Assembly (NCBI GenBank): GCA_013388755.1
Contig: JACAEQ010000036.1
Location: 1-64,000 of the forward strand
Direction: 5' to 3'
DNA length: 64,000 nucleotides
From: Chloroflexota bacterium
GTDB lineage: Bacteria; Chloroflexota; Chloroflexia; Chloroflexales; Roseiflexaceae
The first letter of the stretch is position 1. Every line of letters starts with the position of its first letter. Positions 16,631-44,975 of the stretch are shown in pieces. The translations under genes were made by a program, and so were the position numbers. The notes under the pieces are model-generated. The model saw only the letters and a list, made by a program, of their open reading frames with translations. It did no database searches and was not told the origin of the DNA.

Positions 16631-16797
16631 CCGGTCATGGTCAGGGGTCCGGAAGTGCAGAACATCGCCAGGATCGCGCGCATAACGCCCACGCTCGCAG
16701 CACGCACGTGGTCCGATCGTTCCGCCACGTCGCTATCGAAGAAATGCGAACAGTCACAGCACAGAGACTCTGCCGTCACATTGAAAAGGAAGATTCC

Positions 16798-17985
16798 ATG
16801 CTCGACAAAGCTAACGCCATCGCTCCTGAGATCATTCGCCTGCGCCGCGAGATTCACACCTACCCGGAACTGGCGTTCCAGGAGGTGCGTACCGCGCGCC
16901 TGGTCGCCGAAACCTTGCGCGAGATCGGCGGCATCGACATTCGCACCGGCGTCGGTAAGACCGGCGTCGTCGGCCAGATCGGCACGGGCGATGGCCCGAC
17001 GATCGGTATTCGTGCCGATATGGACGCGCTACCCATCGCTGAGGCCACCGGCCAGCCGTTTGCCTCGCAGACGCCGGGAAATATGCACGCCTGCGGTCAT
17101 GACGCGCATACGGCCATCCTGCTCGGCGTCGCCCATCTGCTCAAACATGAGTTCGCCGCCGGCGGGCTGCGCGGCAATGTGCGCTTCCTGTTCCAACCGG
17201 CGGAAGAGGCACAGGACGATGAGGGATTGAGCGGCGCGCCACGCATGATTGACGACGGCGCACTCGATGGCGTCGATCATGTGATCGCCCTGCACGTCGA
17301 CTCAACGTTACCGGTCGGGCAGATGACTCTGCGCGATGGTGCCAGTTCGGCGGCGGTCGATAGTTTCCGGGGCTGGATCACGGGCAGTGGCGGGCACGGC
17401 GCATACCCGCACCTGGGCACCGACCCGCTCTGGATGCTCCTGCCGGTCATGCAGGCGCTGCACGGCATTGTCACGCGCCGTGTCGACCCGATGAAACCAG
17501 CGGTCGTCAGCCTGGGGGTGGTCCGTGGCGGCACAGTGTCAAATGTCATCCCCGCCGAGGTTTACCTGGAGGGCACGCTGCGCAGTTTCGACCCGGATGT
17601 GCGCGAACAGCTTATGACGGAGGTTGAACGCTCCTTCGCCGTGGCTCGTGCATTCGGCGGCGATTACCGGCTGGAGATCGAGCGCGGCTATCCTGCCGGC
17701 CATAATGACACGACGGTCACGAACTGGATGGCCGGTGTGATCACCGACCTGGTCGGCGCCGAGGCGATCGATCGCACCCGTGCAGGCATGGGCGCGGAAG
17801 ACTTCGCCTATATGACCCGGAAAGCGCCCGGCGCCATGTTTATGCTCGGCGCCGCGATTGACGATGGCATCAGCCGTGGGCACCATACGCCGATCTTCGA
17901 CATTGACGAACGCGCATTCGCGCTGGGCGCGGCAGTGCTGGCCGAGACGGCCCGGCGCTACCTGGCGGGTGAACTGCAACGGTGA
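16798..17985 (+). CDS. M20-family amidohydrolase (hippurate hydrolase / aminoacylase-like)
   Basis: NMHACGHDAHTAILLG metal-binding motif, dimerisation-domain pattern of M20D; start re-set to MLDKANA. Confidence 0.8.
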   Translation: MLDKANAIAPEIIRLRREIHTYPELAFQEVRTARLVAETLREIGGIDIRTGVGKTGVVGQIGTGDGPTIGIRADMDALPIAEATGQPFASQTPGNMHACGHDAHTAILLGVAHLLKHEFAAGGLRGNVRFLFQPAEEAQDDEGLSGAPRMIDDGALDGVDHVIALHVDSTLPVGQMTLRDGASSAAVDSFRGWITGSGGHGAYPHLGTDPLWMLLPVMQALHGIVTRRVDPMKPAVVSLGVVRGGTVSNVIPAEVYLEGTLRSFDPDVREQLMTEVERSFAVARAFGGDYRLEIERGYPAGHNDTTVTNWMAGVITDLVGAEAIDRTRAGMGAEDFAYMTRKAPGAMFMLGAAIDDGISRGHHTPIFDIDERAFALGAAVLAETARRYLAGELQR

Positions 17986-25030: not shown

Positions 25031-25116
25031 GTTCTCGAGTCTGATATGATGTGGGTCGTACGCGGTGCGACACAGGAATGTCGTGCATGTGCGGCCTGCC
25101 ATCCGCAACGTGCTGC

Positions 25117-26436
25117 ATGCCCAAACGCATCTTGATTGCAGATGATGAGCCGGCGGTGCGCCAGCTGCTTGAGCTGGTGCTACGATCGCAGGGATATGAC
25201 GTGCTGACGACACAGAATGGTGATCAACTCGTGCGTACGGCGCAGGAGTGGGTGCCCGACCTTGTGATCGTCGACCTGATGATGCCACAGATGGATGGCT
25301 ATGAGGCGATCCGCCAGTTGCGCAATGATACGCGCACCGCTCACCTGCCGATGCTCATCCTGACTGCACGCGCCAGCGCGGAGGACGTCGTCACCGGATT
25401 CGATACCGGTGCCGATGATTATGTCACCAAGCCGTTCAATATTCCGGAATTACTGGCCCGCATTCGAGCACACCTGCGTCGCGCTGCACAGACGCCGGTG
25501 CATAATCCGCTCACCGGCCTGGCCGGTAATATCCTGCTCACCGAAGAACTGAAACATCGCCTCAAGAGCGAGGCGCCGTTCGCGCTCCTGTACGTCGATC
25601 TCGATAATTTCAAGGCCTTCAACGATACGTATGGCCCGGCTCGCGGCGATCGCCTGATCAAACTGGTCGCCGAGGTCCTTGGTGAAGTCCTGCAAAAGGT
25701 TGGTTCCGGGAGTGACTTTATCGGCCATATCGGCGGCGACGACTTCGCCATTCTGACCGTGCCCGATCGCCTGACGGATCTCTGCCAGGCAATCATCAGA
25801 CTCTTCGATGAACGTGTGCGCAGCCTGTATGACGCTGATGACCTCGCGCGCGGCTACCTGCGCGGTATTGACCGCCAGGGCGTACCGCGCAGCTTTCCAA
25901 TCACATCCATCTCGATCGGGGTCGTCACCAACCGCCGTCGCCGCTTCACGGATCACGAGGAGGTGAGCCGGGTAGCGGCTGAGATGAAGCAGTATGCCAA
26001 GCAGCAACCTGGCAGTACCTACGCGGTAGATATCCGGACATCGAGTGATCAGCCGATCGAACACGACCGCCGCGGCGCGCCACCGCCACCGGCGCTGATC
26101 ATCTCCGATGACGAGGATCTGCGCAAGGCGCTTGCGCCCATCATTATCGCCGCCAATCTGCGTGTGCTCGATGCACCGACTGTGCTTGATGCCGAACGAT
26201 TGCTGGCGTACCATCCGCAGACTGCGCTCGTCATTGCAGATGCGCGGCTCGGGACGCGCCTGCGCGACCTCTGCCGGAAACTGACCGAACATCAGCCAGA
26301 ATTGCCCATCGTGATGCTGGTGGAGCCGGATGACCCGTACGTCGCTGCGCCTGGCGCGCTGTACCGCGTTCTCTTCCTGCCGCTCGATAGTAATATGCTC
26401 AATAGTGTGATTGCCGACGTACTTGAACGCATGTAG
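25117..26436 (+). CDS. Response regulator: REC - GGDEF-like (motif GGDDF) - degenerate C-terminal receiver-like domain
   Basis: REC with phospho-acceptor context LVIVDLMMPQMDG; diguanylate-cyclase fold with HIGGDDFAIL; C-terminal domain lacks the canonical Asp pocket. Confidence 0.75.
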   Translation: MPKRILIADDEPAVRQLLELVLRSQGYDVLTTQNGDQLVRTAQEWVPDLVIVDLMMPQMDGYEAIRQLRNDTRTAHLPMLILTARASAEDVVTGFDTGADDYVTKPFNIPELLARIRAHLRRAAQTPVHNPLTGLAGNILLTEELKHRLKSEAPFALLYVDLDNFKAFNDTYGPARGDRLIKLVAEVLGEVLQKVGSGSDFIGHIGGDDFAILTVPDRLTDLCQAIIRLFDERVRSLYDADDLARGYLRGIDRQGVPRSFPITSISIGVVTNRRRRFTDHEEVSRVAAEMKQYAKQQPGSTYAVDIRTSSDQPIEHDRRGAPPPPALIISDDEDLRKALAPIIIAANLRVLDAPTVLDAERLLAYHPQTALVIADARLGTRLRDLCRKLTEHQPELPIVMLVEPDDPYVAAPGALYRVLFLPLDSNMLNSVIADVLERM

Positions 26437-26451
26437 GAGTGGCTCCGGAAC

Positions 26452-29400
26452 ATGCAGGCGCTGCTCGCCAGTTTGATGATCCTTGCCGGCATCGGCGCCC
26501 TGCTGACACTGCCGCCGGTACGTGCACTGCTGGCCCCACCTGCTCATGCAATCTGGTCGGCACTGTTGCGCCGCGCCAGGCGCGTGCGTAGCGCCACGGT
26601 GATCAGCAGTTCCGGCGAGGAGATCGAAGTTCCTGACGCTGTGCAGACTGAGCCGCTCTGGCTCGGCCAGGCGCGCTTTACGCTGTCCAGTCCGCGTTCG
26701 CGCATCATCGCTGTCGGTCTGCTGGTAGGAGCACTGATACTCTGGGCGCTGCCACGCCTGTTGCCGGATACGCGCGCCGATGAGTTCACCGTTCTGATTG
26801 CGCCGTTCCGTGAGCCGAATGGTGACATCGGTGCCACCGGTCGCGCCGCAGCCGCTGAACTGGCTGATGTGCTGGCGACGACTCACGGCCAGCATATTGC
26901 AGTACAACAGATTGACTCACCTCCCGACAGTGCAGCAGACGCGTCTGCCCTTCTCCAGGCGACCCGCGCCGATGTCTTGCTCTGGGGTGACATTACGCCC
27001 GGCGGGATGCTCGATGGCGAAACGTTGCTGCCGCAGCTTGCCTATGCGCCAAGTGGCGCCTATGCGCCGAACAGCCTGGATGGCTATACTGGTCGCTTTG
27101 CACTGCCGGTTCATTATCCCCTCGCAGCGCAACCGCTTAACGGGCGCGTGGTGCTGCCGCGCCTGATCCGCGCTCTGGCCGACTATAGCAGTGGGCGCTA
27201 TGGTGCCGCCAGTACCGTGCTGGATGACCTTGAACGGCAATATCCTGCGTTGCGTCCCGGCCTGTTACGTACCCTCCGCGCCACGATCTGGTGGGCGCGC
27301 GGCAACTATGAGCAGTCGGCAGGCGAGTTTCGCCGGGCGATTGCAGCAATGCCCGACGCTACCCCGGCTGAACTGGCCCGGCTTTATACCAGCCTCGGTG
27401 CCGTGCAGTATGATATGGGTGACCCGGTGGCGCGCGAGTCATTCAACCAGGCAATTGCGCTGCTGCAAGGGCAGGATCTCGGGGAGTTGCGCTATAACCT
27501 GGCGCTTGAAGAGTTGCGCGCTGGATCGCCAGGCGCTGCCGCAACATCGCTGGAACAGGCACGCCGCTTGCTGCCACCCGCCACTACGCCATTACTGGCA
27601 CTGGCCGAGGCGTATCGGCTCGATGGGCGGCTTGAACCGGCAGCGACTACCCTGGCCGCTGCGACGCGCCAGTCCGGGGCAGATGATGTGGATGCACCCT
27701 TCGACCTGCGGTTCATTGTCAACGCGCGCCTGCGCGCCGGCGTGCAGGCCGAACGGGCATTACTGAAACTTGCGCAAATCGTGAATGCGCGCGGGTCGCT
27801 GATCTGGGAACTTGATGTCTCTCCGCCATTGCCCGAACCCGAACTCACGGCACTGCTGAATGATGTCTCGCTTGCCCTGCGTGAAACGATCAGCTTGAGT
27901 CAGGAATGGAACGAGCGCGCCGCCGCGGCCGATGCGGAACAGCGCCTGGTAGACGGAAGCATTGCGACGCACCAGGCGCGGCGCGCCGAACTGGCAGCGC
28001 GCCGCAACCGGTTCTGGCTGGCAGTCGTCGAGGTGGAACTGGCGCGATTGCGTCGTACGCGCCCACCAGAAGGCCTGGCTGCAATCTGGTTTGGCCTGAC
28101 GCGCGCATGGTCGCCGGCAACCGACTCGTTGCGCCAGATCGAGACGCTCGAGCAGGTTCAGCCAGGCAATGCCGATCTGATGTTGATGCGTGGGCGCGCC
28201 CTGCTGGTCAATGACAATGAGCGCGAGGCGCGCGTTGCGTTCGAAACTGCTGAACGGCTGGCACCCGATCGTCCTGAGCCGCTATATCACCAGGCGATGC
28301 TATTGCTGCAGCAGGATCGGGCACAGGCGCTCCAGTTGCTTGCCGCGGCTCAAGCGCGTCATACCGATTACTTCCCGGCGCGGATACGCCTCGCCGAGCT
28401 TGCCGAAGAAGACGGGCGCTGGCAGGAGGCCATTGAGCAGCGGCGCTGGCTGGCTGAGCACCGCCCCGGCGCAGGCGAGTCGCTCGCGCTGGCACGGGTG
28501 CTGCGTCTCAGCGGACCAACCGGGTACTCCGAGGCGGAACAGGCTCTCCTGCCTCTTGTGGCGAGGAACAATGCCGCAGCAATCATTGAACTCAGCCGGG
28601 TCTATTACGATGCTGAGAATATCGCTGCGGCGCGCAGCACGCTGGAACGTGGCCAGCAGAACACGGCGCGCGGCGCGGCCCCCTTCGCCGATATTTCGTA
28701 CGAATTGGGGCAGTTGCTGATTGCGAGCGGTGATGCGGCAGCGGCCGAGCGCCAGTTCGAGATGGCGGTCAATGCCAGCCCGCGGCATGTACCGTCGCAT
28801 ATTGCGCTGGCGCAACTTGCAACCGACGAGCGCGCCGCTGCGCGCCACTACGCGGCGGCCCTGGACGCCGGCGCAAACGACCCGGCGATCCTGACGCACA
28901 TGGGTGCGATGCTGCTCGATCTGCGCGAATATGCGACGGCAGCCAGCGCCTATGAGCGCGCTATCAGTGCCGCGCCTGATGATGCCGATGCGCGCTATGG
29001 CGCTGCCCTGGCCTATCTTGGTCTCGACCGCCTCGATGCCGCCGAGGAGGCGGCGCGCGCCGCGCTGCAGCGGCGCGCCGTCTATCCCGAGGCGCTGGTG
29101 CTGCTTGGCGATATTGCGTTGCGGCGTGCCCGGATCCAGGAAGCCGAACAGCAGTATCGCGCGGCATTGCAGCAGAACTCTGCCATGGCTGCTGCCTATA
29201 TCGGCCTGGGGCGCGTCGCTGCCACGTCGGATGACTGGTCGATCGCGGCAGGGCACTTCTTGAATGCTGTACAGCGCGAGCCGCGGTCTCCTGAGGCACA
29301 TCTGTGGCTGGGCGAAGCGCGCGTTCGCACCGGCGATCTGGCAGGCGCCGTCGCCGTCTACCAGACCGCGCTCATGCTCCGCGACACATTTCCCGAAGCG

Positions 29401-29955
29401 CACTTTGGTCTGGCGCAGGCACAGTTTGGTCTGGCACAGGTAGATGCGGCGCTGGCGGAAGTTACACGCGCGCTGGAGCAACGACCGCGTTATGCCGAAG
29501 CGCTTCTGCTGCTGGGGAAGATTGAAGAACAGCAGGGTCATGACGCGCGCGCGCTCGAGGCGTATGGGCGAGCCATCGGTGTCAACCCACGCCTGGCTGA
29601 ACCGTACTATCGCCGCGCGCTGGTGCTGGTGCGCGCCGACCGGTTGAATGACGCGCGCACGGACCTGGAGACTGCCACGCGCCTGGAACCAGCATTTGCT
29701 GAAGCGCACTACTGGCTTGGCCGCGTCCATTTTGCGCAGCGCAACTTCCAGGCGGCCGCCAACCGGTTCCGTGAAGCGGTCGCGCGTCGTGGTGGCACCT
29801 ACCCGGAAGCCCGTTTCTACCAGGGAATGGCAGAAGAACAACTTGGCGAGCTTAATGGAGCCATTCGATCATTCGAGACCGTCGCCGGCCAGAATGATGA
29901 TCCGCTCTGGGCCGGTGAAGCGCGCGCCGCCCTGGCGCGCCTGAGCGATCGATAA
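26452..29955 (+). CDS. Large tetratricopeptide-repeat (TPR) protein with N-terminal membrane anchor
   Basis: 1167 aa; N-terminal hydrophobic segments, then >15 TPR-like helical repeats (AxxYxxAL.., ...EAHxxLG..). Confidence 0.7.
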   Translation: MQALLASLMILAGIGALLTLPPVRALLAPPAHAIWSALLRRARRVRSATVISSSGEEIEVPDAVQTEPLWLGQARFTLSSPRSRIIAVGLLVGALILWALPRLLPDTRADEFTVLIAPFREPNGDIGATGRAAAAELADVLATTHGQHIAVQQIDSPPDSAADASALLQATRADVLLWGDITPGGMLDGETLLPQLAYAPSGAYAPNSLDGYTGRFALPVHYPLAAQPLNGRVVLPRLIRALADYSSGRYGAASTVLDDLERQYPALRPGLLRTLRATIWWARGNYEQSAGEFRRAIAAMPDATPAELARLYTSLGAVQYDMGDPVARESFNQAIALLQGQDLGELRYNLALEELRAGSPGAAATSLEQARRLLPPATTPLLALAEAYRLDGRLEPAATTLAAATRQSGADDVDAPFDLRFIVNARLRAGVQAERALLKLAQIVNARGSLIWELDVSPPLPEPELTALLNDVSLALRETISLSQEWNERAAAADAEQRLVDGSIATHQARRAELAARRNRFWLAVVEVELARLRRTRPPEGLAAIWFGLTRAWSPATDSLRQIETLEQVQPGNADLMLMRGRALLVNDNEREARVAFETAERLAPDRPEPLYHQAMLLLQQDRAQALQLLAAAQARHTDYFPARIRLAELAEEDGRWQEAIEQRRWLAEHRPGAGESLALARVLRLSGPTGYSEAEQALLPLVARNNAAAIIELSRVYYDAENIAAARSTLERGQQNTARGAAPFADISYELGQLLIASGDAAAAERQFEMAVNASPRHVPSHIALAQLATDERAAARHYAAALDAGANDPAILTHMGAMLLDLREYATAASAYERAISAAPDDADARYGAALAYLGLDRLDAAEEAARAALQRRAVYPEALVLLGDIALRRARIQEAEQQYRAALQQNSAMAAAYIGLGRVAATSDDWSIAAGHFLNAVQREPRSPEAHLWLGEARVRTGDLAGAVAVYQTALMLRDTFPEAHFGLAQAQFGLAQVDAALAEVTRALEQRPRYAEALLLLGKIEEQQGHDARALEAYGRAIGVNPRLAEPYYRRALVLVRADRLNDARTDLETATRLEPAFAEAHYWLGRVHFAQRNFQAAANRFREAVARRGGTYPEARFYQGMAEEQLGELNGAIRSFETVAGQNDDPLWAGEARAALARLSDR

Positions 29956-35759: not shown

Positions 35760-36947
35760 TTACACGGTTTCGACGGCAACAGCAATCGCTTCGCCGCCGC
35801 CAAGGCACAACGCTGCAATGCCGCGCCCGCCACCGCGCAGGCGCAGCGCATGGATGAGCGTCACCAGAATGCGCGCGCCACTGGCGCCGATCGGGTGCCC
35901 CAGCGCAATCGCCCCACCGTGCACATTCAGCCGGTCGCTATCCAGCCCCAGCGCGCGAATATTCTGGACAACCTGAGCCGCGAATGCTTCGTTGATTTCG
36001 AACAGGTCATAATCATCAATCGTCGTTGCGGTATGGGCGAGCAGCCGCTGGATCGCGTAGACCGGCGCGGTAAACACCTCACGCGGCGGAACTGCCGCCT
36101 GCGCAGCGCCAATCAGCCGCGCCAGCGGGCGCGTGCCAAGTTCTGCGGCGCGCCCCGCACTCGTCACCACCAGCGCCGCTGCGCCATCGGTCAGCCCGGG
36201 GGCATTGCCGGCCGTCACGGTACCTTCGGATGAAAAGACTGGCGCAAGTTTGCTGAGCGCTGCCACACTGGTGCCGCGACGCGGCGGTTCATCGGCAACC
36301 GGCCCGCCAGCGCCACGCCCGATGGACGGATCGAACGGAGCGATCTCCTCAGCAAATGCGCCATTGTCCTGCGCAGCAACCGCGCGCGCCTGCGACTCGG
36401 CGGCATAGGAATCCTGCTGTTCGCGCGTAATGCCATACGTGCGCGCCGTCCAGTCGGCGGCGCTCCCCATATGCTGATGTTCGAAGGCACACCATAACCC
36501 GTCGTGAATCAGCGCATCGGTCAGTTCGCCATGGCCGAGACGATACCCGCTACGCGCTTCAGGCAAGAGGTACGGCGCGCGGCTCATACTCTCCATACCA
36601 CCGGCAACGATCAACGAAGCATCGCCAGCGCGGATGAGTGCCGCCGCCAGCGTCACTGCTTTCAGGCCGCTGCCACACACCTTGTTGATGGTCAGCGCCC
36701 CGACGGATGCCGGCAGGCCGCCACCGATGGCCGCCTGGCGCGCCGGCGCCTGGCCAAGCCCGGCGCCGACCACGTTCCCCATGATACATTCATCCACCAG
36801 CGCCGGGATAATACCCGCGCGCGTAACCGCGGCACGCACCGCATGCGCGCCCAGCTCTGTTGCCGCCATATTGCGCAGCATGCCCTGGAACTTACCGATC
36901 GGCGTACGCGCGGCGCCAATAATGACGATATCATCTGCTCCTTGCAT
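35760..36947 (-). CDS. Acetyl-CoA C-acetyltransferase (thiolase II)
   Basis: Thiolase signatures incl. active-site Cys context [12 protein letters not shown]-terminal [12 protein letters not shown] and [10 protein letters not shown]. Confidence 0.9.
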
Positions 36948-36966
36948 CGAGCACCCCCAGGATCAG

Positions 36967-39900
36967 TTATGGGCGGCAACTGGCATTGTATGGTGCGCTC
37001 TCGAAATAGGTGCGCCATTCACTCTCAGAGAGTGTACGCCCGGCCATACGGCAGGCAACCGTGAGCAGTTCCCCACTGCCGGCCGGCAGCGAATCCGGGG
37101 CAGGCAACGGATCGTCGAGATTCCAGACGCGCGCGATGCCATCAGCGCCGACGCTCATGACCGTTCGTGTTGCAGGTGGGACCACCACACCCGTGACCGG
37201 CCCATCATGGCCGCGTAACAGAAACGGTCTGGCGCCCGGATCGGCGGTTGTCAGATCCCACAGGCCAACACTGCCATCAGCGCTCGCAGTGACAAGGCGA
37301 TCGCCACCACCACTCAGGGCCAGGCCAGTGATGCGATCGGCATGGCCGCGCAGTACCACACGCGCCTGATTGTCATCGCGACCCTCAAGATCCCAGACAC
37401 ACGTCGTGCCGTCGGCGCTGCCGGCGATCACCAGAGGCGCGGTATTCGAGGTCATCAGCAACTGCGTCACCGGCGCGGTAAGACCGAGGAGCACATACGG
37501 CTGATTGAAACTGACGCCGCTGAGGCTCCAGAGCCGCACCTGGCCACCTGCGCTGCCATAGGCGATCCAGCGTCCATTGCCACTGAACGCAATCGACGTC
37601 AGCGGGCCACGCGTCCGTTCCTGGGTGTAGGAGCCTGTACCGGACGACAGGGTATACAGACGCGCCTGGCTGTCGTCATTTCCGGTCGCCAGCAACTGGC
37701 CGTCGGGGCTGAAGGCCAGTGAACGAACGGCACTTTGCCCGCCAAGTCCGCTCAGGCGCTGTGGTGCCGCTGACGGACTGGCAAGATCATAGACCAGCGT
37801 CGCCCCCTGCGCGTCGGCGATCGCCAGCAAACGCCCGTCGGCGCTAAGCGCAATCGCGGTATTGGCGTCACCCGGGCCACTGAGTTCGCGCGCGACAGAC
37901 ACAGCGCTGGAAACGTTCCACAGCCGGACGCTCGCCGCATCACCGCCCGCGGTCACGAGCCGGGTTCCATCGCTGGAGAGCGCGAGCAGCGTCACCGGGC
38001 CAGGCGCCATGGCCGTGCGCGGCGGGGCCGCCAGGTCGGCCAGGTTCCACACCTGAAGCGCACCATCCGCGCCGACGATCGCCGTCACCGTGCCATCACG
38101 GCTGGTTGCGACGGCAGAAGCCGGCCTGGCGATATCCAGCCCGATCCCACCGATGCGTGTCAGCGCATTCCGCAACACTGCATCCGCGACATCAACCGGC
38201 GGCTCACCCTTCGCAAGCGTGACCTGCACCGCCTCAACCGCCAGGAGCAGGCCGCGCACCGGGCGCTCACTACTCTCCGCCTGCGCCAGCGCAGCAAGCT
38301 GGCCGGCACGCGCCTGGCGCGCCTGTTGTTCGAGCGCCGGCACCAGCGCCTCGGCGGTACGGCGCGCCTGTGCCTCCTGCACCGCCGCGAGCGCAACCTC
38401 CGTACCGCGCTGCAGGGCCAGCCCTTCAGCGGCCTGCGCAGTAGCGGCGGCGGCGCGCGCATCGGCAGCGGCAACCTGTGCCGTGGCGGCGGCCTGGTCC
38501 GAGATGACAACCTGCGTTGCAAGGTCGAACGTCCTGGCCTGGATCTGCGACTGTTGCCCGAGGAGGACGACGCCGGAAACGATCGCTCCGGCAAGCGCAA
38601 ATACCAGAGAGGCAACTACAAGGCGCAGGCGGCGGGCAGAACGCGCCTCAGCCTCGGCACGCCGCCCCTGCTCGACGGCCAGCTTCTCACTCTGTTCGGC
38701 CTGGAGGCGTCGCGCTTCGGCCAGCGCCTGGGCCTGCTCCAGCTCATGGCGGGTCCGTTCCTCCTTCTCGTGCCGTGCCTGATCAATCGCCTGACGGCTC
38801 GCCACGACCAGGTCAATCAACGCCTCATCGAAGCCGAGATAGGCGGCCTCAGCACTGTTCAGCCAGCGTTCCGCCTCGATCAATTGCACTTCGTCGAGCA
38901 GTCCTGCCGCTCCGCCCCCCAGGCGCACCCATTCTGCCGCTTTGGCTTCCAGGCGGCGGCGCGACGCAATCGCGGCCCGCTCATCTTCCAGCCAGCCAAC
39001 CAGGGTCGGCCAGTTACGCACGAGCGCCTCGTGCGCAACTTCCACCTGCGCGGCTTCCGGCGTATCGCCCGGCGTCAGGCGCACCAGCCGCGACGCAATC
39101 AGGCGATCGAGCACACGATCGACGCGATCACGCGCTTCACCGGCCCGATAGAGCTGATCACGGCGGATGCGATTGCTGGTAATCTCCAGGCCTTCACCGG
39201 GGCGAACCATACGCATCAGAATACGGCGCGCCGTTACCTGCTCCTCCGGGATCAGGCCATTGTAGAAAGCGTCGGCGCTACGCGCCAGTGCCTGGCGCCC
39301 GCCGCCAATCTGCTGATACGCCTGCCATGTCACCCGATTGCGATCGCGCGCGTCCCACAACTTGAGCAGGGTGAACTGCAACAACGGCAACGCTGCCGGT
39401 TCACCAAGCATGTCGTGCAGCAGCGCCTCAACGACCCCTTGCTCGAACTTCAGCCCGACCAGCTCTGCCGGCCGTTCGATCGCCTCGCGCATTTCGCTGG
39501 CATTGAGCGGCAGCAACTGGACGCGCGCCTGTTCAACCCAGCTTTGCAGGGCAGGTTCGAGCGCAATAAAACTCTCGAAGTCACTGCGCAGCGTCATAAT
39601 GACCAGGTGATCGGGTGAACGATGCTCCGCCAGCGTCACCAGCGCCGCAACAAACGCCCGGCGCTCCACCTCATCGTCGGTGAGGGTAAAGAGCTCCTCG
39701 AGCTGATCGACAAACAGCACCGCCGGCGTCTCCCCGGCCAGCGCCGCGATCACCTGTTGCGGATCGCGTAGTTGATCGGCCAGTTTCTCATCCTGCGCCA
39801 GGTCATCGGGATGCCCCATCATGCGGCGCAACGCACGCGCGAGGTGAACCAGCGGCTGATCGCCGGGGACCATCGGCGGCACATAGCGCCACGCGCGGCT

Positions 39901-40425
39901 ACCCGGGATGGCGTCGTTCTTCAACGCCGGAATGAGGCCGGCGCGCACCACCGACGACTTCCCGGCGCCTGATGGGCCGACCAGCACCAGCATATGGCGC
40001 TCGTTCAGCTTGCCGACAAGATACTCAACCAGGCGCCGGCGGCCAAAGAAGCGCTCGGCATCTTCTTCGCGAAAGGCATCAAGGCCGACATAGGGGCAGC
40101 TTGCATCATCAAGGATCGGCGCGATTTCCGGATCGAACTCTTGGAGTGTTGCGTCCGGCGGATCGTAGCCGTTGCGCATGAGGATCGTGGCCCAGTAGTC
40201 AAGCAAACTCTGCGCCGCCGAGCGCTCGTCCTCATCATCAAGCAGAACGCCTGTGGCGCTGCCGCGGGCAATGATCCTGGCCGCCTGGCTCAACAGTGCC
40301 GGCGTCAGCCCCCCATCGCGCTGGCGCCGCAGCATCTCGGTATGCGCCAGGCGCAGCGCCGCAAACGACGGATAGAGCGAGCCATCATGTTCAGGCGGCT
40401 GTTCCGGCGATGTGGCACGTGTCAT
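36967..40425 (-). CDS. STAND-class P-loop NTPase - coiled coil - TM helix - WD40 beta-propeller protein (1152 aa)
   Basis: CPYVGLDAFREEDAERFFGRR + Walker A LVGPSGAGKSS + Walker B VLFVDQLEE; EVAHEALVRNWPTLVGWL helical motif; predicted TM helix LRLVVASLVFALAGAIVSGVVLLG (~aa 600-623); >=7 WD40-like blades (VRLWNV, TLVYDL, ARLYTL, VRLWSL, TCVWDL, VGLWDL, ARVWNL); start ATG overlaps the CHAT gene stop (ATGA). Confidence 0.85.
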   Translation of the reverse strand: MTRATSPEQPPEHDGSLYPSFAALRLAHTEMLRRQRDGGLTPALLSQAARIIARGSATGVLLDDEDERSAAQSLLDYWATILMRNGYDPPDATLQEFDPEIAPILDDASCPYVGLDAFREEDAERFFGRRRLVEYLVGKLNERHMLVLVGPSGAGKSSVVRAGLIPALKNDAIPGSRAWRYVPPMVPGDQPLVHLARALRRMMGHPDDLAQDEKLADQLRDPQQVIAALAGETPAVLFVDQLEELFTLTDDEVERRAFVAALVTLAEHRSPDHLVIMTLRSDFESFIALEPALQSWVEQARVQLLPLNASEMREAIERPAELVGLKFEQGVVEALLHDMLGEPAALPLLQFTLLKLWDARDRNRVTWQAYQQIGGGRQALARSADAFYNGLIPEEQVTARRILMRMVRPGEGLEITSNRIRRDQLYRAGEARDRVDRVLDRLIASRLVRLTPGDTPEAAQVEVAHEALVRNWPTLVGWLEDERAAIASRRRLEAKAAEWVRLGGGAAGLLDEVQLIEAERWLNSAEAAYLGFDEALIDLVVASRQAIDQARHEKEERTRHELEQAQALAEARRLQAEQSEKLAVEQGRRAEAEARSARRLRLVVASLVFALAGAIVSGVVLLGQQSQIQARTFDLATQVVISDQAAATAQVAAADARAAAATAQAAEGLALQRGTEVALAAVQEAQARRTAEALVPALEQQARQARAGQLAALAQAESSERPVRGLLLAVEAVQVTLAKGEPPVDVADAVLRNALTRIGGIGLDIARPASAVATSRDGTVTAIVGADGALQVWNLADLAAPPRTAMAPGPVTLLALSSDGTRLVTAGGDAASVRLWNVSSAVSVARELSGPGDANTAIALSADGRLLAIADAQGATLVYDLASPSAAPQRLSGLGGQSAVRSLAFSPDGQLLATGNDDSQARLYTLSSGTGSYTQERTRGPLTSIAFSGNGRWIAYGSAGGQVRLWSLSGVSFNQPYVLLGLTAPVTQLLMTSNTAPLVIAGSADGTTCVWDLEGRDDNQARVVLRGHADRITGLALSGGGDRLVTASADGSVGLWDLTTADPGARPFLLRGHDGPVTGVVVPPATRTVMSVGADGIARVWNLDDPLPAPDSLPAGSGELLTVACRMAGRTLSESEWRTYFESAPYNASCRP

Positions 40426-42491
40426 GAGGTCAGCACCTTGAGCACGGATGCCAGCGGATCGCCGACCTTCCGCAACTCATCACACATACGCTTCAGGTCG
40501 ATATCCACGCGAAAGAACCGTTCGCCTGCCTGGCGGCGGAAGCGGCGGAAGAACTGGCGCGCCCGCGCCTGATCACCGGAGTCAAGCGCAGCGGTCACCT
40601 TTTCCGCATCATTTTTCAATGCCGCGCCCCAGGCCTCGGAACTCTCCAGGTAGAGTGGCGCCACGCGCTCGTTGATATCCGGCCATGAAAGCTCCAGTTC
40701 GGTTATATCCTGGTCGATAAACTGCTCGATACGCCGCAGGTCAAGATCAATAATCTGCCAGCGATCATGTTCGTTCACCAGTTCCGTCAGGCCTGTACTG
40801 AGGGTCGCGAGCGCAGCAACACCCAGTTCGAACTGATTGATCCTGGCCGCATCGTAGCCAGCGCCGCCGAGCCACGAGCGAACGGCAGCCATTCCCTGCA
40901 CGAGCGCGGTCAGGCGCAGGGCACGCGCCGCGGCATTGAGCCGCGCATTGATCACGGTCGGCTGCGACGTCAGCACCCGGTTAAGCAACCGACTGGCCTG
41001 CTTCAGACGTTTGACGTCCAGGGCTTCAATGGCAGCCGCCAGTTCTGCCTCCGCATTACTCACATCCGCAACCCATGCCAGTTCGCTTGCCGCGAGCTTA
41101 CCGCGCTCGATCACGCGCCGGAGATCCTCCACGATCCCTTGCAGCGTTACATCATAGTTCGCCATCGCGTCCCACGTCAGGTCATCGTCGGGCAGGCGGC
41201 GCATGTCGGTGATGATCGGATTATAGCAATGGAACTGGAGTGAGTGGAGTTGATCGTGCACATCTTTGTAATCCGCAAGAATATCGATCTGCGCCGCAGC
41301 GGCCTGAAAATCGGCGCGAAAGGCGATCACCGCCTCTCGCACATCACTGCCGGCCTCGATCAGATCGCCCAGCATCTGCATGCCCGCGCCGATCGACTGT
41401 GTTGCACCAGGGGCAACAACCGGCGCCGCACGCGCTACCGGCGGCTCGAACAGGCGACCATCCTCGGCACGTGTATAGATCACCGGCACGCCCCAGTCGG
41501 CGCGACCAAGGCCGGCGACATTCATCACGGCGCGCCGCCCCTCGGTCACGCAGAAATCAATCGGGAACGCATCGGCCAGTGCGCGGTAGAATGCGCCGGC
41601 GAACGCGCGCGTTGCTTCTTCGGGTACCTGAAACTGCATGGCAACAACTGCCGGGATCTGGGCGCGCACCAGTGCCGGTGCAATACTCCGCGCCGGATCG
41701 AGCGCCAGTTGCCCGGTCGAACAGGCATCCAGCACCACCAGGCGCACATTGGCCCGATCGAGCATGATGCCGAGTTGCAGTGAACTGATCGGTTCAGGAT
41801 CGCCGATCTCGTCCTCGAACAACAATCGCCCGGTGGCGCCGTCGGCGGCAAAGCCGCCATGGCCGACGAAATGCCAGATGTGGTACCCTTCGCGCAGGCG
41901 CTCCTGCAGCACTGCAGCTGTCAGGTGCGGCTCGACGGTCACCTGGACCCGGGTGCCAAGGCGTTCGAGCGCCGCGTGGACGGCGGCCAGTTCACGTTCG
42001 ACCTCAGCAGGCGGGGGAGTCTGCGCTGCCGTGAGCAACACTCGCAACGGCAATGGCGCCGCCAGGACCGGCACGCGATCCGGTTGCGGCAAGTGGCGCA
42101 CGATCGGGGCATCAAGTAGCGCAAGCGGGCCGCGATCCGGATCATAGAGGAACTCCCAGGGCAGCGCGCCGGCAGCGGCGGCTGACGACGGGATGTTGAG
42201 CCGCAGGCGCAACCCTTCGTCAGTGCCAAGCGCGCCGCGGCTGCGCACATAGACATCGCGCACCGCGCCGGTGAAGAGCGCATCGAACAGGGCGCGACCG
42301 AGCAGCACCAGGGCTGCTTCATCAACGTCGAGCATGCGCAATCGGGCCAGTAACGCCTGTATTTGCGGATCATCATCAGGCAGGCGTAGTTCACCATCTC
42401 CTTCCTCGCCACGCGGGCCGCGCGCTTTGAGGAGAAAACGGCCATGATCGCCAGCGGTCACGGTAATTTCAAAATCAGCGTATGATTTCAT
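40422..42491 (-). CDS. CHAT-domain (caspase-like HetF/peptidase C14-fold) protein with unknown N- and C-terminal domains
   Basis: Caspase-like His (YHIWHFVGHGGF) and Cys (RLVVLDACSTGQ) dyad motifs, typical CHAT end PAVVAMQFQVPEEATRAFAGAFYRAL; ~300-aa C-terminal helical region of unknown function; start set to MKSYADF (TATACT 7 nt upstream); track ORF extends to 42548. Confidence 0.82.
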   Translation of the reverse strand: MKSYADFEITVTAGDHGRFLLKARGPRGEEGDGELRLPDDDPQIQALLARLRMLDVDEAALVLLGRALFDALFTGAVRDVYVRSRGALGTDEGLRLRLNIPSSAAAAGALPWEFLYDPDRGPLALLDAPIVRHLPQPDRVPVLAAPLPLRVLLTAAQTPPPAEVERELAAVHAALERLGTRVQVTVEPHLTAAVLQERLREGYHIWHFVGHGGFAADGATGRLLFEDEIGDPEPISSLQLGIMLDRANVRLVVLDACSTGQLALDPARSIAPALVRAQIPAVVAMQFQVPEEATRAFAGAFYRALADAFPIDFCVTEGRRAVMNVAGLGRADWGVPVIYTRAEDGRLFEPPVARAAPVVAPGATQSIGAGMQMLGDLIEAGSDVREAVIAFRADFQAAAAQIDILADYKDVHDQLHSLQFHCYNPIITDMRRLPDDDLTWDAMANYDVTLQGIVEDLRRVIERGKLAASELAWVADVSNAEAELAAAIEALDVKRLKQASRLLNRVLTSQPTVINARLNAAARALRLTALVQGMAAVRSWLGGAGYDAARINQFELGVAALATLSTGLTELVNEHDRWQIIDLDLRRIEQFIDQDITELELSWPDINERVAPLYLESSEAWGAALKNDAEKVTAALDSGDQARARQFFRRFRRQAGERFFRVDIDLKRMCDELRKVGDPLASVLKVLTS

Positions 42492-42638
42492 GGATTGGTG
42501 TAGTATAGCATAGTGCTGCGTTGCCGACGAGTATGGAGTATGGTACACTCCCGCGCGCCGATATCAACGAAGCGCGGCATGTCGCGCAATGGACGCATGC
42601 GTCAGCACCTGACAGCAACAGCAAGTGATGAGACGGCA

Positions 42639-44975
42639 ATGCAACCTGCCGCAACCCGATCGTTCGCGGTGCGCATGATTGCGGCTGCAGCGTTTGGTGC
42701 GCTACTGGCGGCATTGCTGGGCCAGATCCCTGTAACGCACCAGGTTGACATCGGTGGGAGCGATGCCGCCTATGTGCGCGGGTTCTACGACCCGGAACGC
42801 AGTGACGCTCCAGGAGCGCCGGCCTATCTCAACGGATCGGATGGCAGCGCCCGCTGGTCGCGTGCCGAGTCCTACCTCCTGTTTCCTCAGGCCGGCCTGC
42901 CCGCCGAGGTGACGATCCGTGTGCGTGGCTGGCGCGCTGGCGCTTCGCCTCCCGCCGTCACGCTCCTGGTAGAGGGCGGCGAAACACGCACCATTGCGAC
43001 GACCGGCGAATGGCAGGACCTCCAGGTTCCGGTCAGCGGCGGTCTTCTGAAACCAGAAGATGTGCTTATCATCCTCCGCACCGAGGTTGCCCCAGCCGGC
43101 AACGGCGATCCGCGGCGGGTGGGCGTTCTGATTGACCGGGCAACGTATCGTACTGCCGCGCCGCCGCTGATGCCATACCCGGCGCAACTGGCATGGGGGG
43201 CGCTGGCCGGCGCATTGCTCTGCCTGGCGCTTACCGCGTATCGCACAACGACTGCACAGGCGCCGGATGCGCCCCGACAACGCGAACATGCGCTCCTTAT
43301 CCCTCCGCCGCTGTTCGCCTGCCTTGCCGGCGCAGGACTCGTCGGCATGCTCTATCTGCTTCTGTACCGGTTCCAGCCGCCCTATCCCTACCCATTGCGC
43401 GGCTTTCTCCCTGCCGTATGTGTCACGCTCGGCGTAGCCGCCGCAGTGCGCCATGGCCCCCGGCTCGCAACGCGCCTGCCGGTGCTGCCGGATGTACTCG
43501 CACCGGGTGGCATTGTTGTGTGGACGGGTATGGTTCTGCTGGCGGCCCGCGAGCATGTCACGCTCTCCGTGCCCGGCGTCGAGAAGGATTTCCGCGTCTT
43601 CGCGACACGCGCGGTCGATCCGGCGCTCATCTTCCGTGCTGACGGATTTTACAACCTGGGCTATCCACTGCTCCTCTGGTGCGTTGCACCGCTGACCGGC
43701 GGTAACCTCTTTCTTGCCGCAACCCTTATCGCCGCCATGTCCGGCGCGCTTCTGCTTGGTGCAACCTGGGTGCTGGTACGTCAGGTGCTCGGGCGCTGGC
43801 CGGCAACCGTGGCTCTGATCGCGCTTGGTTTCAGCCCATTCGTGGTGCAATATGCGTTATACGTCGGCAGCGACATGCCCTTCGCCGCCCTGTGCATCCT
43901 GGCCCTGACGCTGCTACTTGTAAGCGACAGTCGCCGGCCCTGGCCGTACCTGCTCGCCGGCCTGGCCGCTGGCGCCGCGTTCCTTGTGCGCCATCCGGGC
44001 ATCCTGTTGCTTCCGTCTGGCGTGCTCGCGCTGCTGGCGCAACACGCAACGGCCGGCCGGGCGCGTTCATCTCTCAACGCGCTCGTTTTCTGCAGCGCAT
44101 TCTTCATTGCCATTCTTCCACAACTCTTCGTCAATCTACGCGACACCGGCAACCCGATCTACAGCCAGCAGGCCAAGAACGTCTGGCTGGCGGTCTATGG
44201 TGATGGCGATTGGGGGCGCTGGAACGAGGTGAGTAATGATGTGTCCCTGGCTCGCCTGATCGCGGACGACCCGCCACGCTTCGTTGCGGCCTGGTGGACC
44301 AACCTGCGCGGGTTCATCGGCGCCGGAGCAGAGGATACCAGCGAGTCCGGGCGGGCGATGCAATTGCGGCTGCTCGCCTTCCCGGCAAACTGGCTTGCCG
44401 TGCTGGGGATCGCCGGCTGGCTCGCGCTCATCCTGGTGCGCGGCGTGCGTGCGTCGCTGCCACCTCTCGCTCGCGCGCCCCTGATCATCCTGCTTACCTG
44501 GGTTGCACTCTATGCCGGCGCGCTCAGTGTCGGCCTGCCGTTACAACGATTCTTCCTGCCGCTTGCGCCGGTCTACGCGATTGCGGCCGCCTGGGCGCTC
44601 ACCACAGCCGTGCGTCTGCTGGCCGCAGGGCATGCCCGACAACCGGCACGCCTTCAGATCCTTGCCGTGCTGGCGCTCCTGTTCCTGATGTGGGACGGGG
44701 TCACCATCGGCGCGCGCTATGTGCTCGATCGGCAGCCTGCCGCTGAAGTCGCCGCGGTGCGCCTGGTGCAACAGGCGCTGCCACCGGGCGAACGGTTCGG
44801 TGCATCGCTCGCGCCGGGCGACCCGGTCGGCAAGTATTCCGCCATCGCTCACCGCGTCGCATCTGCGGGGGAACCAGCGCGCTACCTGCTCCATAGTACA
44901 GACGCCGGCTCACCGCCTGCAGGAGCAGTCATCGCGACATCCGGCACATACGTACTGCTGCAGGTCGGGCCATGA
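42639..44975 (+). CDS. GT-C fold membrane glycosyltransferase (ArnT/PMT, GT39/GT83-like) with N-terminal extracytoplasmic domain
   Basis: N-terminal TM + ~200-aa soluble domain, then >=10 TM helices; paralogous to the downstream GT39-like gene; start uncertain (42639 or 42675). Confidence 0.6.
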   Translation: MQPAATRSFAVRMIAAAAFGALLAALLGQIPVTHQVDIGGSDAAYVRGFYDPERSDAPGAPAYLNGSDGSARWSRAESYLLFPQAGLPAEVTIRVRGWRAGASPPAVTLLVEGGETRTIATTGEWQDLQVPVSGGLLKPEDVLIILRTEVAPAGNGDPRRVGVLIDRATYRTAAPPLMPYPAQLAWGALAGALLCLALTAYRTTTAQAPDAPRQREHALLIPPPLFACLAGAGLVGMLYLLLYRFQPPYPYPLRGFLPAVCVTLGVAAAVRHGPRLATRLPVLPDVLAPGGIVVWTGMVLLAAREHVTLSVPGVEKDFRVFATRAVDPALIFRADGFYNLGYPLLLWCVAPLTGGNLFLAATLIAAMSGALLLGATWVLVRQVLGRWPATVALIALGFSPFVVQYALYVGSDMPFAALCILALTLLLVSDSRRPWPYLLAGLAAGAAFLVRHPGILLLPSGVLALLAQHATAGRARSSLNALVFCSAFFIAILPQLFVNLRDTGNPIYSQQAKNVWLAVYGDGDWGRWNEVSNDVSLARLIADDPPRFVAAWWTNLRGFIGAGAEDTSESGRAMQLRLLAFPANWLAVLGIAGWLALILVRGVRASLPPLARAPLIILLTWVALYAGALSVGLPLQRFFLPLAPVYAIAAAWALTTAVRLLAAGHARQPARLQILAVLALLFLMWDGVTIGARYVLDRQPAAEVAAVRLVQQALPPGERFGASLAPGDPVGKYSAIAHRVASAGEPARYLLHSTDAGSPPAGAVIATSGTYVLLQVGP

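Follow-up and report, generated by a model that had tools for sequence, protein, structure and literature searches.

The window analysed here, a stretch of 64,000 nucleotides from a Chloroflexota bacterium of the Roseiflexaceae (GenBank assembly GCA_013388755.1, contig JACAEQ010000036.1, positions 1 to 64,000 of the forward strand), carries two overlapping genes on its minus strand, one for a caspase-fold CHAT protease (protein A) and one for a STAND NTPase that continues into a transmembrane (TM) helix and a WD40 propeller (protein B). The first-pass annotation of this DNA had treated them as a stand-alone pair. They are instead one member of a large, widespread and apparently unnamed family, in which a constant C-terminal module of protein A, termed Ac, accompanies a constant N-terminal domain, termed Nd, and the nSTAND1 NTPase of protein B. 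The locus probably encodes a two-protein, membrane-embedded STAND switch of the NLR-like type, in which Ac would dock on Nd and the CHAT protease would supply the output. Gene A and its parts are as follows.

40422 to 42491, minus strand: gene A, CHAT protease with a C-terminal Ac module, 689 residues plus stop, from the open reading frame (ORF) and its translation, with the start chosen by homologue consensus.
41520 to 42299, minus strand: CHAT (caspase-fold) domain, residues 65 to 324 (Pfam PF12770).
41859 to 41861, minus strand: catalytic His211, in the motif HFVGHGGF (GHG).
41721 to 41723, minus strand: catalytic Cys257, in the motif VVLDACSTGQ (DAC).
40425 to 41396, minus strand: Ac module, residues ~366 to 689, an all-helical tandem bundle of ~305 residues and the constant C-terminal partner domain.
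40422 to 40425, minus strand: ATGA overlap of the A stop and the B start, read from the sequence.

Gene B lies directly downstream and is made up of six parts and a tail.

36967 to 40425, minus strand: gene B, consisting of Nd, nSTAND1, stalk, TM helix, linker and WD40, 1152 residues plus stop, from the ORF and its translation.
40102 to 40383, minus strand: Nd, residues ~15 to 108 (~95 residues), a family-specific N-terminal domain.
38920 to 40095, minus strand: nSTAND1 NTPase module, residues 111 to 502 (Pfam PF20703).
39955 to 39978, minus strand: Walker A motif GPSGAGKS, within the nSTAND1 module.
38623 to 38919, minus strand: charged helical stalk, residues 503 to 601, with an Arg-rich membrane-proximal end (ARSARRLR), from the sequence.
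38560 to 38622, minus strand: predicted TM helix, residues 602 to 622 (LVVASLVFALAGAIVSGVVLL), from hydropathy.
38098 to 38559, minus strand: Ala/Gln-rich linker, residues 623 to 776, predicted to lie outside the membrane, from the sequence.
37114 to 38097, minus strand: WD40 beta-propeller, residues 777 to 1104, eight repeats, the predicted extracytoplasmic sensor, from Pfam and the repeat count.
36970 to 37113, minus strand: C-terminal tail, residues 1105 to 1152 (LLTVACRMAGRTLSESEWRTYF..PY..C), from the sequence.

Profile searches of the kind that the first-pass annotation had called for recovered CHAT, STAND (specifically nSTAND1) and WD40 domains, with E-values so small that chance is ruled out for these matches. 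The CHAT match over residues 65 to 324 of protein A has an E-value of 2.4e-22 and scores 80.2 bits against a gathering cut-off of 24. Both residues of the His211/Cys257 dyad are present in A, and they are retained in 50 of 51 full-length homologues, the sole exception lacking both. That protein, P0053, is a full-length CHAT-Ac homologue in which His is replaced by Gln and Cys by Gly with Ac retained, and it looks like a pseudo-protease version. An AlphaFold model of protein A, with a predicted local distance difference test score (pLDDT) of 83, shows the caspase-hemoglobinase fold. The top Foldseek matches of the CHAT fold are the SAVED-CHAT filament 8tl0, Csx29, separase and DdvA, and gingipain and caspases are also among the matches.

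In protein B, the nSTAND1 match (E 1.3e-113, 381 bits against a cut-off of 27.1) covers model positions 1 to 374 of 379 and opens at CPYVGL. The Walker A motif is retained in 57 of 58 partner proteins and the Walker B motif (DQ[FLM]EE, in B as VLFVDQLEE) in 55 of 58. The propeller is matched by the WD40 family PF00400 (E 9e-38) and by many propeller families over residues 777 to 1104, and eight WD-type repeat ends, spaced 43 to 45 residues apart, occur at residues 790 to 1098. Residues 602 to 622 form the single hydrophobic segment of the protein. Its position is constant in homologues, in which the identity of the TM sequence falls to 9-39%. Most of what had been read from the letters alone is thereby upheld: both ORFs lie on the minus strand where the first-pass annotation placed them; the ATGA overlap is found at 40425 to 40422; every motif that it quoted (HFVGHGGF, VVLDACSTGQ, GPSGAGKSS, VLFVDQLEE and EVAHEALVRNWPTLVGWL) is present; its propeller of at least seven blades has eight repeats; and its TM helix corresponds to the hydrophobic segment just described. 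It gave the protease a length of 690 residues; the ORF was right, and the protein has 689, the larger figure counting the stop codon. The C-terminal ~300 residues of A, which it left unassigned, are indeed without a Pfam or Protein Data Bank (PDB) relative, but they are constant and family-defining, as are the first ~110 residues of B.

These ~300 residues constitute Ac. A search of Pfam with Ac returned zero matches even at E ≤ 10, and no relative was found among PDB sequences. Modelled alone, Ac reaches a pLDDT of 92 and a predicted template modelling score of 0.84, and consists of 9-10 long helices. Its two halves are homologous to each other (hhalign probability 87%, E 4e-6), and the module is therefore a tandem duplication of a bundle of ~150 residues. 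Comparison with solved structures gave generic four-helix-bundle matches, and two Ac members bear the automated Joint Genome Institute (JGI) names "HPt domain" and "ferritin-like". Nd likewise has zero Pfam matches. It is strongly conserved from Chloroflexota to Nostoc, with the consensus fpSla.lR.aH..LL...rG.atGalLd.e.dR.aAQSLLDYW...PdatL.eFDp.laPeL; the first 170 residues of B, used as a protein query, yielded short fragments only.

The linkage of the two genes holds in both directions. The forward test used 56 loci fetched via CHAT similarity, together with the window. All 19 of the fetched loci that encode a CHAT-Ac protein, and the window itself, have Nd-nSTAND1 as the next gene downstream, on the strand of the CHAT-Ac gene (37-96% identity, several genomic contexts), and a separate nSTAND1 gene was found in none of the ~35 loci whose CHAT paralogue has no Ac. 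The reverse test scanned metagenomic loci with a degenerate DNA pattern for the Nd motif. It returned 75 loci, 74 of which encode Nd-nSTAND1, and where at least 900 nt of upstream sequence was present an Ac ORF lies directly upstream on the same strand in 67 of 68. The true exception in this test is L096, in which B is frameshifted. Another locus, L135 (1-7612), is an apparent exception, where a single Ac gene precedes a tandem of two Nd-nSTAND1-TM genes. The 4-bp start/stop overlap of the window recurs in 6 of 9 called pairs of other loci (L007, L057, L060, L061, L062 and L063). Conservation of the gene neighbourhood, proposed in the first-pass annotation as a check, is thus borne out wherever the family occurs. 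The notion that A and B are unrelated neighbours whose overlap is incidental can be regarded as refuted, as the linkage is present in the window and in every fetched CHAT-Ac locus and persists across flanking contexts and phyla. The identity matrices of Ac, Nd and the NTPase are correlated (r 0.83-0.86). This correlation was considered as evidence of contact and rejected, being expected of co-inherited neighbours.

The extent of the family became apparent when an Ac profile was searched against 1.84 billion representative proteins, with 1,878 clusters matching at E ≤ 1e-3 and 917 at E ≤ 1e-30; the Ac of the window matches this profile with E 1e-125. In all of the 150 matches listed, Ac forms the C-terminal end of the protein, preceded by a region of 0 to 500 residues, the head. 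Among 102 representatives the head is TIR in 28, EAD7 in 15, CHAT in 10, EAD10 in 6, EAD1 in 6, and a kinase, HEPN_Swt1, trypsin, FHA or BTAD domain in 1 each. Many heads of ~70 residues have no Pfam match. The partner gene is the same with other heads: Nd-nSTAND1 comes after the genes for EAD10-Ac (Nostoc sp. FACHB-87), TIR-Ac, EAD7-Ac, kinase-Ac and trypsin-Ac alike. When the systems are ranked by the identity of their NTPase to that of the window, CHAT-headed and other-headed systems interleave, and it follows that heads are exchanged on a constant Ac/Nd-nSTAND1 chassis. Most proteins matched by the Ac profile are unnamed metagenomic ones, and the family is established taxonomically for Chloroflexota and Nostocaceae. 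Possible headless Ac proteins are indistinguishable from contig-end truncations; the gene in L063, for instance, starts 10 nt from the contig end.

Two further observations concern the setting of such heads. The EAD10-Ac/nSTAND1 pair of Nostoc sp. FACHB-87 (L057, 19-5784) stands beside genes for EAD10-NB-ARC-WD40, EAD10-WD40 and a Peptidase_C14 caspase, and the locus is a cluster of EAD10-linked conflict genes. The CHAT head (50-66% identical) is much expanded in Roseiflexaceae and Kouleothrix (proteins P0059-P0120; loci L019-L044), where it occurs fused to NB-ARC plus TPR, TIR, EAD7 or SH3, or directly to nSTAND1(-FGE). Several CHAT paralogues per genome are possible, the 11.3-Mb Chloroflexia chromosome OY969916.1 having at least 3.

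The main clue to the roles of Ac and Nd comes from natural fusions. In two relatives from the same bacterial family (L037 and L039), CHAT is joined by a linker of ~15 residues to nSTAND1 (beginning at CPYPGM), followed by the TM helix and WD40, and the match to the B profile starts at about position 95. Ac and Nd are both absent from these proteins and the remaining parts are retained; L039 even has a tail similar to that of B after its propeller. As the fusions do without both domains, Ac and Nd appear jointly to substitute for the covalent link, and Ac would therefore dock on Nd and place its head at the N-terminus of the STAND protein, which is the effector position in other STAND proteins. 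Nd and Ac are not homologous (hhalign probability 0.15%), so that their coupling would be heterotypic, unlike the EAD principle. The suggestion in the first-pass annotation that the pair belongs to a conflict or cell-death module gains support from these natural CHAT-nSTAND1-TM-WD40 fusions and from the TIR, HEPN, trypsin, kinase and EAD heads found on the same chassis.

The fusions also bear on two other accounts of Ac. In the first, Ac would be a latent toxin, such as a pore former, that is freed when CHAT cleaves protein A. Protease-gated helical or pore-forming effectors occur elsewhere, as with EACC1 and Pepco (10.1101/2025.11.14.688446), and a disordered linker (residues 353 to 365) does separate CHAT from Ac. 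Most heads, however, are non-proteases (TIR, EADs, kinase), fused CHAT-nSTAND1 relatives manage without Ac, and a single segment of protein A, in the CHAT region (residues 59 to 77) and not in Ac, exceeds the hydropathy threshold, all of which makes this account highly improbable. In the second, Ac would be a regulatory or sensing subunit, a helical bundle that binds a ligand, metal or haem and controls the NTPase from within the cytoplasm; the output would come from the head in either case. Residues K409, H412, D413, N515, H575 and Q579 of Ac are invariant or near-invariant (invariant His, His and Gln; near-invariant Lys, Asp and Asn) in more than 130 diverse members. The fold class is common to four-helix-bundle sensors and cofactor-binding proteins, known effector-associated adaptor domains have only a third of the 305 residues of Ac, and headless Ac proteins may exist. 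Set against this, a sequence match to a cofactor-binding family was not found, the fused relatives dispense with Ac, and the headless forms may be truncated at contig ends. A regulatory role of this kind is, on balance, unlikely. The invariant His and Asp residues also brought an HD-type hydrolase and a haem or metal binder into consideration as specific identities for Ac, with the residue pattern as their sole support.

The topology of protein B is suggested by features that recur in its relatives. Of 30 complete partners with a length of 600 residues or more, 27 have a TM helix after the NTPase. Among 41 single-TM members, lysine and arginine together average 5.2 in the 15 residues before the helix and 1.7 after it, and the N-terminal side has the larger count in 39 of the 41 and the smaller in none; these sequences are mutually related, and the charge count is not a probability. 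The regions after the TM helix in homologues are mostly WD40 and otherwise TPR, FGE-sulfatase (C-type-lectin fold), SH3_3, WD40 plus GH25 lysozyme, or nothing. SH3_3 and GH25 are typical cell-wall-associated domains. Because of the charge bias and these cell-wall-type domains, the propeller is predicted to lie outside the cytoplasmic membrane, with B in an N-in/C-out orientation and its sensor extracytoplasmic, in line with the extracytoplasmic sensor already envisaged in the first-pass annotation. Individual examples of post-TM regions are WD40 plus a GH25 lysozyme in L114 (2784-5813), a bacterial SH3 domain in L113 (2439-3566), TPR repeats in L104 (2050-4020), and an FGE-sulfatase (C-type-lectin-like) domain at the end of the first of the tandem B genes of L135. 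The predicted outer parts of B also diverge fast. Identity in the linker is 26-36% in more distant orthologues. Close orthologues are 66-70% identical in the propeller and 81-84% in the NTPase, and for distant orthologues the respective values are 29-41% and 48-70%.

In the arrangement considered most probable, B would be a single-pass membrane protein, the nSTAND1 NTPase being cytoplasmic and the WD40 propeller of eight repeats lying beyond the cytoplasmic membrane, and A would be a cytoplasmic CHAT protease whose Ac is the dedicated partner of Nd. Heterotypic binding of Ac to Nd would bring the protease to the N-terminus of B, which is where a STAND protein has its effector. A cue at the outer propeller would then bring about nucleoside triphosphate-dependent oligomerisation of the NTPase at the inner face of the membrane, and the tethered CHAT domains would be activated by induced proximity. 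The cleavage of cellular or invader proteins that may follow would stop the growth of the affected cell in the filament or kill it.

Several points weigh against this arrangement. The evidence for contact between Ac and Nd is indirect, and the ~40-60 sequence pairs are too few for coupling analysis. The invariant polar residues of Ac are not obviously needed by a passive tether. The TM helix and the topology are predictions from hydropathy and charge bias in related proteins, and the arrangement leaves unexplained how a membrane-tethered STAND protein would oligomerise and how a propeller on the outside would gate it. A defence island was not found in the window, where the flanks consist of core metabolism and envelope glycosyltransferase genes with synteny conserved among Roseiflexus-like genomes, and a substrate gene was not found in the A-B operon. 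Neither protein matches a system model of PADLOC-DB v2, in which SAVED_CHAT aligns weakly to the CHAT region of A (27 bits, residues 75 to 361) and B has P-loop-only matches.

With regard to the genomic setting, gene A begins at the ATG at 42491 and ends with the TGA stop at 40424 to 40422, gene B begins at the ATG at 40425 to 40423, and the last base of its stop is 36967. The longest ORF of gene A could start at a GTG at 42548; the ATG is favoured because the N-terminus of 50 full-length homologues reads MKxYxDFEI. A promoter-like site, for which the evidence is weak, precedes it.

42540 to 42567, minus strand: promoter-like site TTGATA-16-TACCAT, ~50 nt 5' of the ATG of gene A.

A consensus promoter scan gave 4 sites where 1.4 are expected, and a scan of the locus found no terminator-like site between A and B or after B. 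Two PMT_2 glycosyltransferase genes diverge from gene A, the first possible start of the nearer one being a GTG at 42513, ~20 nt from the ATG of A. Downstream of gene B, on the same strand, are genes for a thiolase, an ASCH-domain protein and the succinyl-CoA ligase beta subunit (sucC). The thiolase gene (within 35760-36967) begins 20 nt past the stop of B and is possibly co-transcribed with the A-B module. The order PMT_2, PMT_2, A, B, thiolase, ASCH, sucC is conserved in several Roseiflexus-like contigs, and more distant homologues are flanked by unrelated genes. The nearest relatives are from Roseiflexus and Roseiflexaceae metagenome-assembled genomes, that is, from filamentous Chloroflexota. 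A JGI metagenome contig, Ga0272446_1005678 (L083, 8333-13554), is 99.8% identical to positions 38279-43500 of the window and therefore comes from the same population. In a 76%-identical relative that is otherwise syntenic (L007), transposase genes and genes of toxin-antitoxin type (MazE-like, DUF433/DUF5615) lie at 62-1608 and 15034-17270, a few kb from the module. Elsewhere the window encodes a ClpC-like protein, RadA and aminotransferases, and at 25051-29955 a response-regulator-GGDEF gene is followed by one for a 1167-residue TPR-rich protein, with no evident link to A-B.

This setting raises the question of whether the pair serves envelope surveillance or developmental signalling, and not defence against invaders, with its outer domain monitoring the cell wall. 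It would then be comparable to HetF, a CHAT protease in cyanobacterial cell division. Such a role would suit the core-chromosome position beside PMT_2 envelope glycosyltransferases with conserved synteny, the zero matches in 2.9 million viral contigs and 72,556 plasmids, the cell-wall-binding SH3_3 and GH25 muramidase domains in the outer part of homologues, and a partial match of protein A to the NCBIfam model for HetF (NF045509). Orthology to HetF was rejected, because the match scores 76.8 bits against an equivalog cut-off of 1200 and is thus limited to the shared CHAT domain. Heads such as TIR, HEPN and EAD1/7/10 are moreover characteristic of conflict systems, other caspase, EAD and NB-ARC genes cluster around some of the loci, and the swapping of heads on a constant chassis, together with fast divergence of the sensor, resembles immune receptors. 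A purely surveillance or developmental function consequently seems improbable.

If the preferred NLR-like arrangement applies across the family, the Ac/Nd-nSTAND1 pairs may form a large undescribed class of transmembrane receptors, with a sensor outside and a cytoplasmic NTPase to which a new heterotypic adaptor pair brings swappable death effectors (caspase-like, TIR, HEPN and others), a generalisation that we put forward tentatively and hold to be plausible rather than probable. To our knowledge, the characterised bacterial STAND/NLR-like sensors (Avs, bNACHT, Apaf-1-like) are cytosolic and recognise phage proteins once infection is under way. Receptors of the kind proposed here would respond to phage contact, foreign cells or damage to the wall at a stage before entry. 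They would correspond, in bacteria, to surface pattern-recognition receptors with an apoptosome-type output, and would extend NLR-type signalling to extracytoplasmic cues and bring it nearer to the surface-receptor logic of animals and plants. Ac and Nd would be a new portable means of plugging effectors into a STAND platform, which would be relevant to engineering. It would be relevant to annotation as well, since most of the ~1,900 clusters matched by the Ac profile have no informative name in the databases searched, and testable members are present in tractable cyanobacteria, such as the EAD10-Ac/nSTAND1 pair of Nostoc sp. FACHB-87.

The general kind of system, a STAND NTPase with a caspase or TIR effector in multicellular bacteria, is already known from computational work, and what appears to be new is the architecture: Ac and Nd as heterotypic adaptors, heads that can be exchanged, and a membrane-spanning NTPase whose sensor is predicted to face outward. 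The clade nSTAND1 was named by Kaur et al. 2021 (eLife, PMC8195603) for NTPases that carry EADs or effectors at the N-terminus and FGE domains at the C-terminus and are sometimes found in EACC1 systems. The conflict systems centred on it (Kaur, Burroughs, Iyer, Aravind; PMC8195603, PMC7159879) have the NTPase clade in common with A-B, share effectors and adaptors (caspase/CHAT, TIR, trypsin, kinase, FHA, EAD1/7/8) and C-terminal sensors like FGE/C-type lectin with the present family, and are likewise enriched in filamentous or multicellular bacteria. In the published systems, however, the NTPase and the effector or EAD are parts of one protein, or two proteins are coupled by identical EADs, whereas here a separate effector protein and two unrelated constant domains are involved, and the NTPase is consistently membrane-spanning, unlike in the published descriptions. 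Homotypic EAD coupling (Kaur et al. 2020) was considered for A and B and set aside, as neither protein has an EAD Pfam match and Nd and Ac are not related to each other; other members of the family carry EAD1/7/10 as the head on Ac.

The EACC1-caspase system is similar in being a two-gene, membrane-associated, caspase-containing system of multicellular bacteria in which nSTAND1 is sometimes present. In that system the caspase gene has on its 5' side the gene for EACC1, a small protein with a single TM helix that is now reported to form pores upon activation by a protease (Kaur et al. 2020; Evans et al. 2025 preprint), whereas the membrane component of A-B is the NTPase. Membership in this system, considered on account of the 2021 link between nSTAND1 and EACC1, was rejected, as no EACC1 gene or domain was found at this locus and no such gene in the homologous loci. 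The closest solved CHAT folds are those of SAVED-CHAT, from CBASS and type III CRISPR (8tl0, E 6e-7), and of Csx29, the TPR-CHAT of Craspase (7y9x and 8eex, E ~4e-5), both immunity proteases that are switched on by assembly or ligand binding. Protein A differs from them in having no SAVED or TPR domain, and CRISPR or cyclase genes are not nearby. In its predicted topology, B resembles receptor Ser/Thr kinases with an outer beta-propeller, such as PknD of M. tuberculosis, which have the same order of cytoplasmic enzyme, one TM helix and extracytoplasmic propeller; the cytoplasmic module of B, in contrast, is not a kinase but a STAND NTPase that would recruit a death effector.

Periplasmic placement has been predicted for some individual STAND targets in a 2024 PNAS paper on diversity-generating retroelements (DGR). 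Text searches of the 2020 and 2021 eLife papers, the 2024 PNAS DGR paper, the 2025 protease-effector preprint and the 2026 Nature STAND survey turned up no account of Ac, Nd, the split two-gene form or a consistently membrane-spanning nSTAND1 group; the supplementary neighbourhood tables of these papers may hold such loci. The Apaf-1/CED-4 apoptosome and the bacterial Apaf-1-like caspase-STAND-WD40 proteins (Nature 2026, PMC13581612) follow the same logic as that proposed here for A-B, with a WD40 sensor, a STAND NTPase, a caspase-fold protease and an oligomeric platform. The A-B pair departs from these Apaf-1-like systems in that its NTPase is nSTAND1 and not NB-ARC, its adaptors are Ac and Nd in place of a CARD-CARD pair, and its sensor is predicted to sit across the membrane and not in the cytosol.

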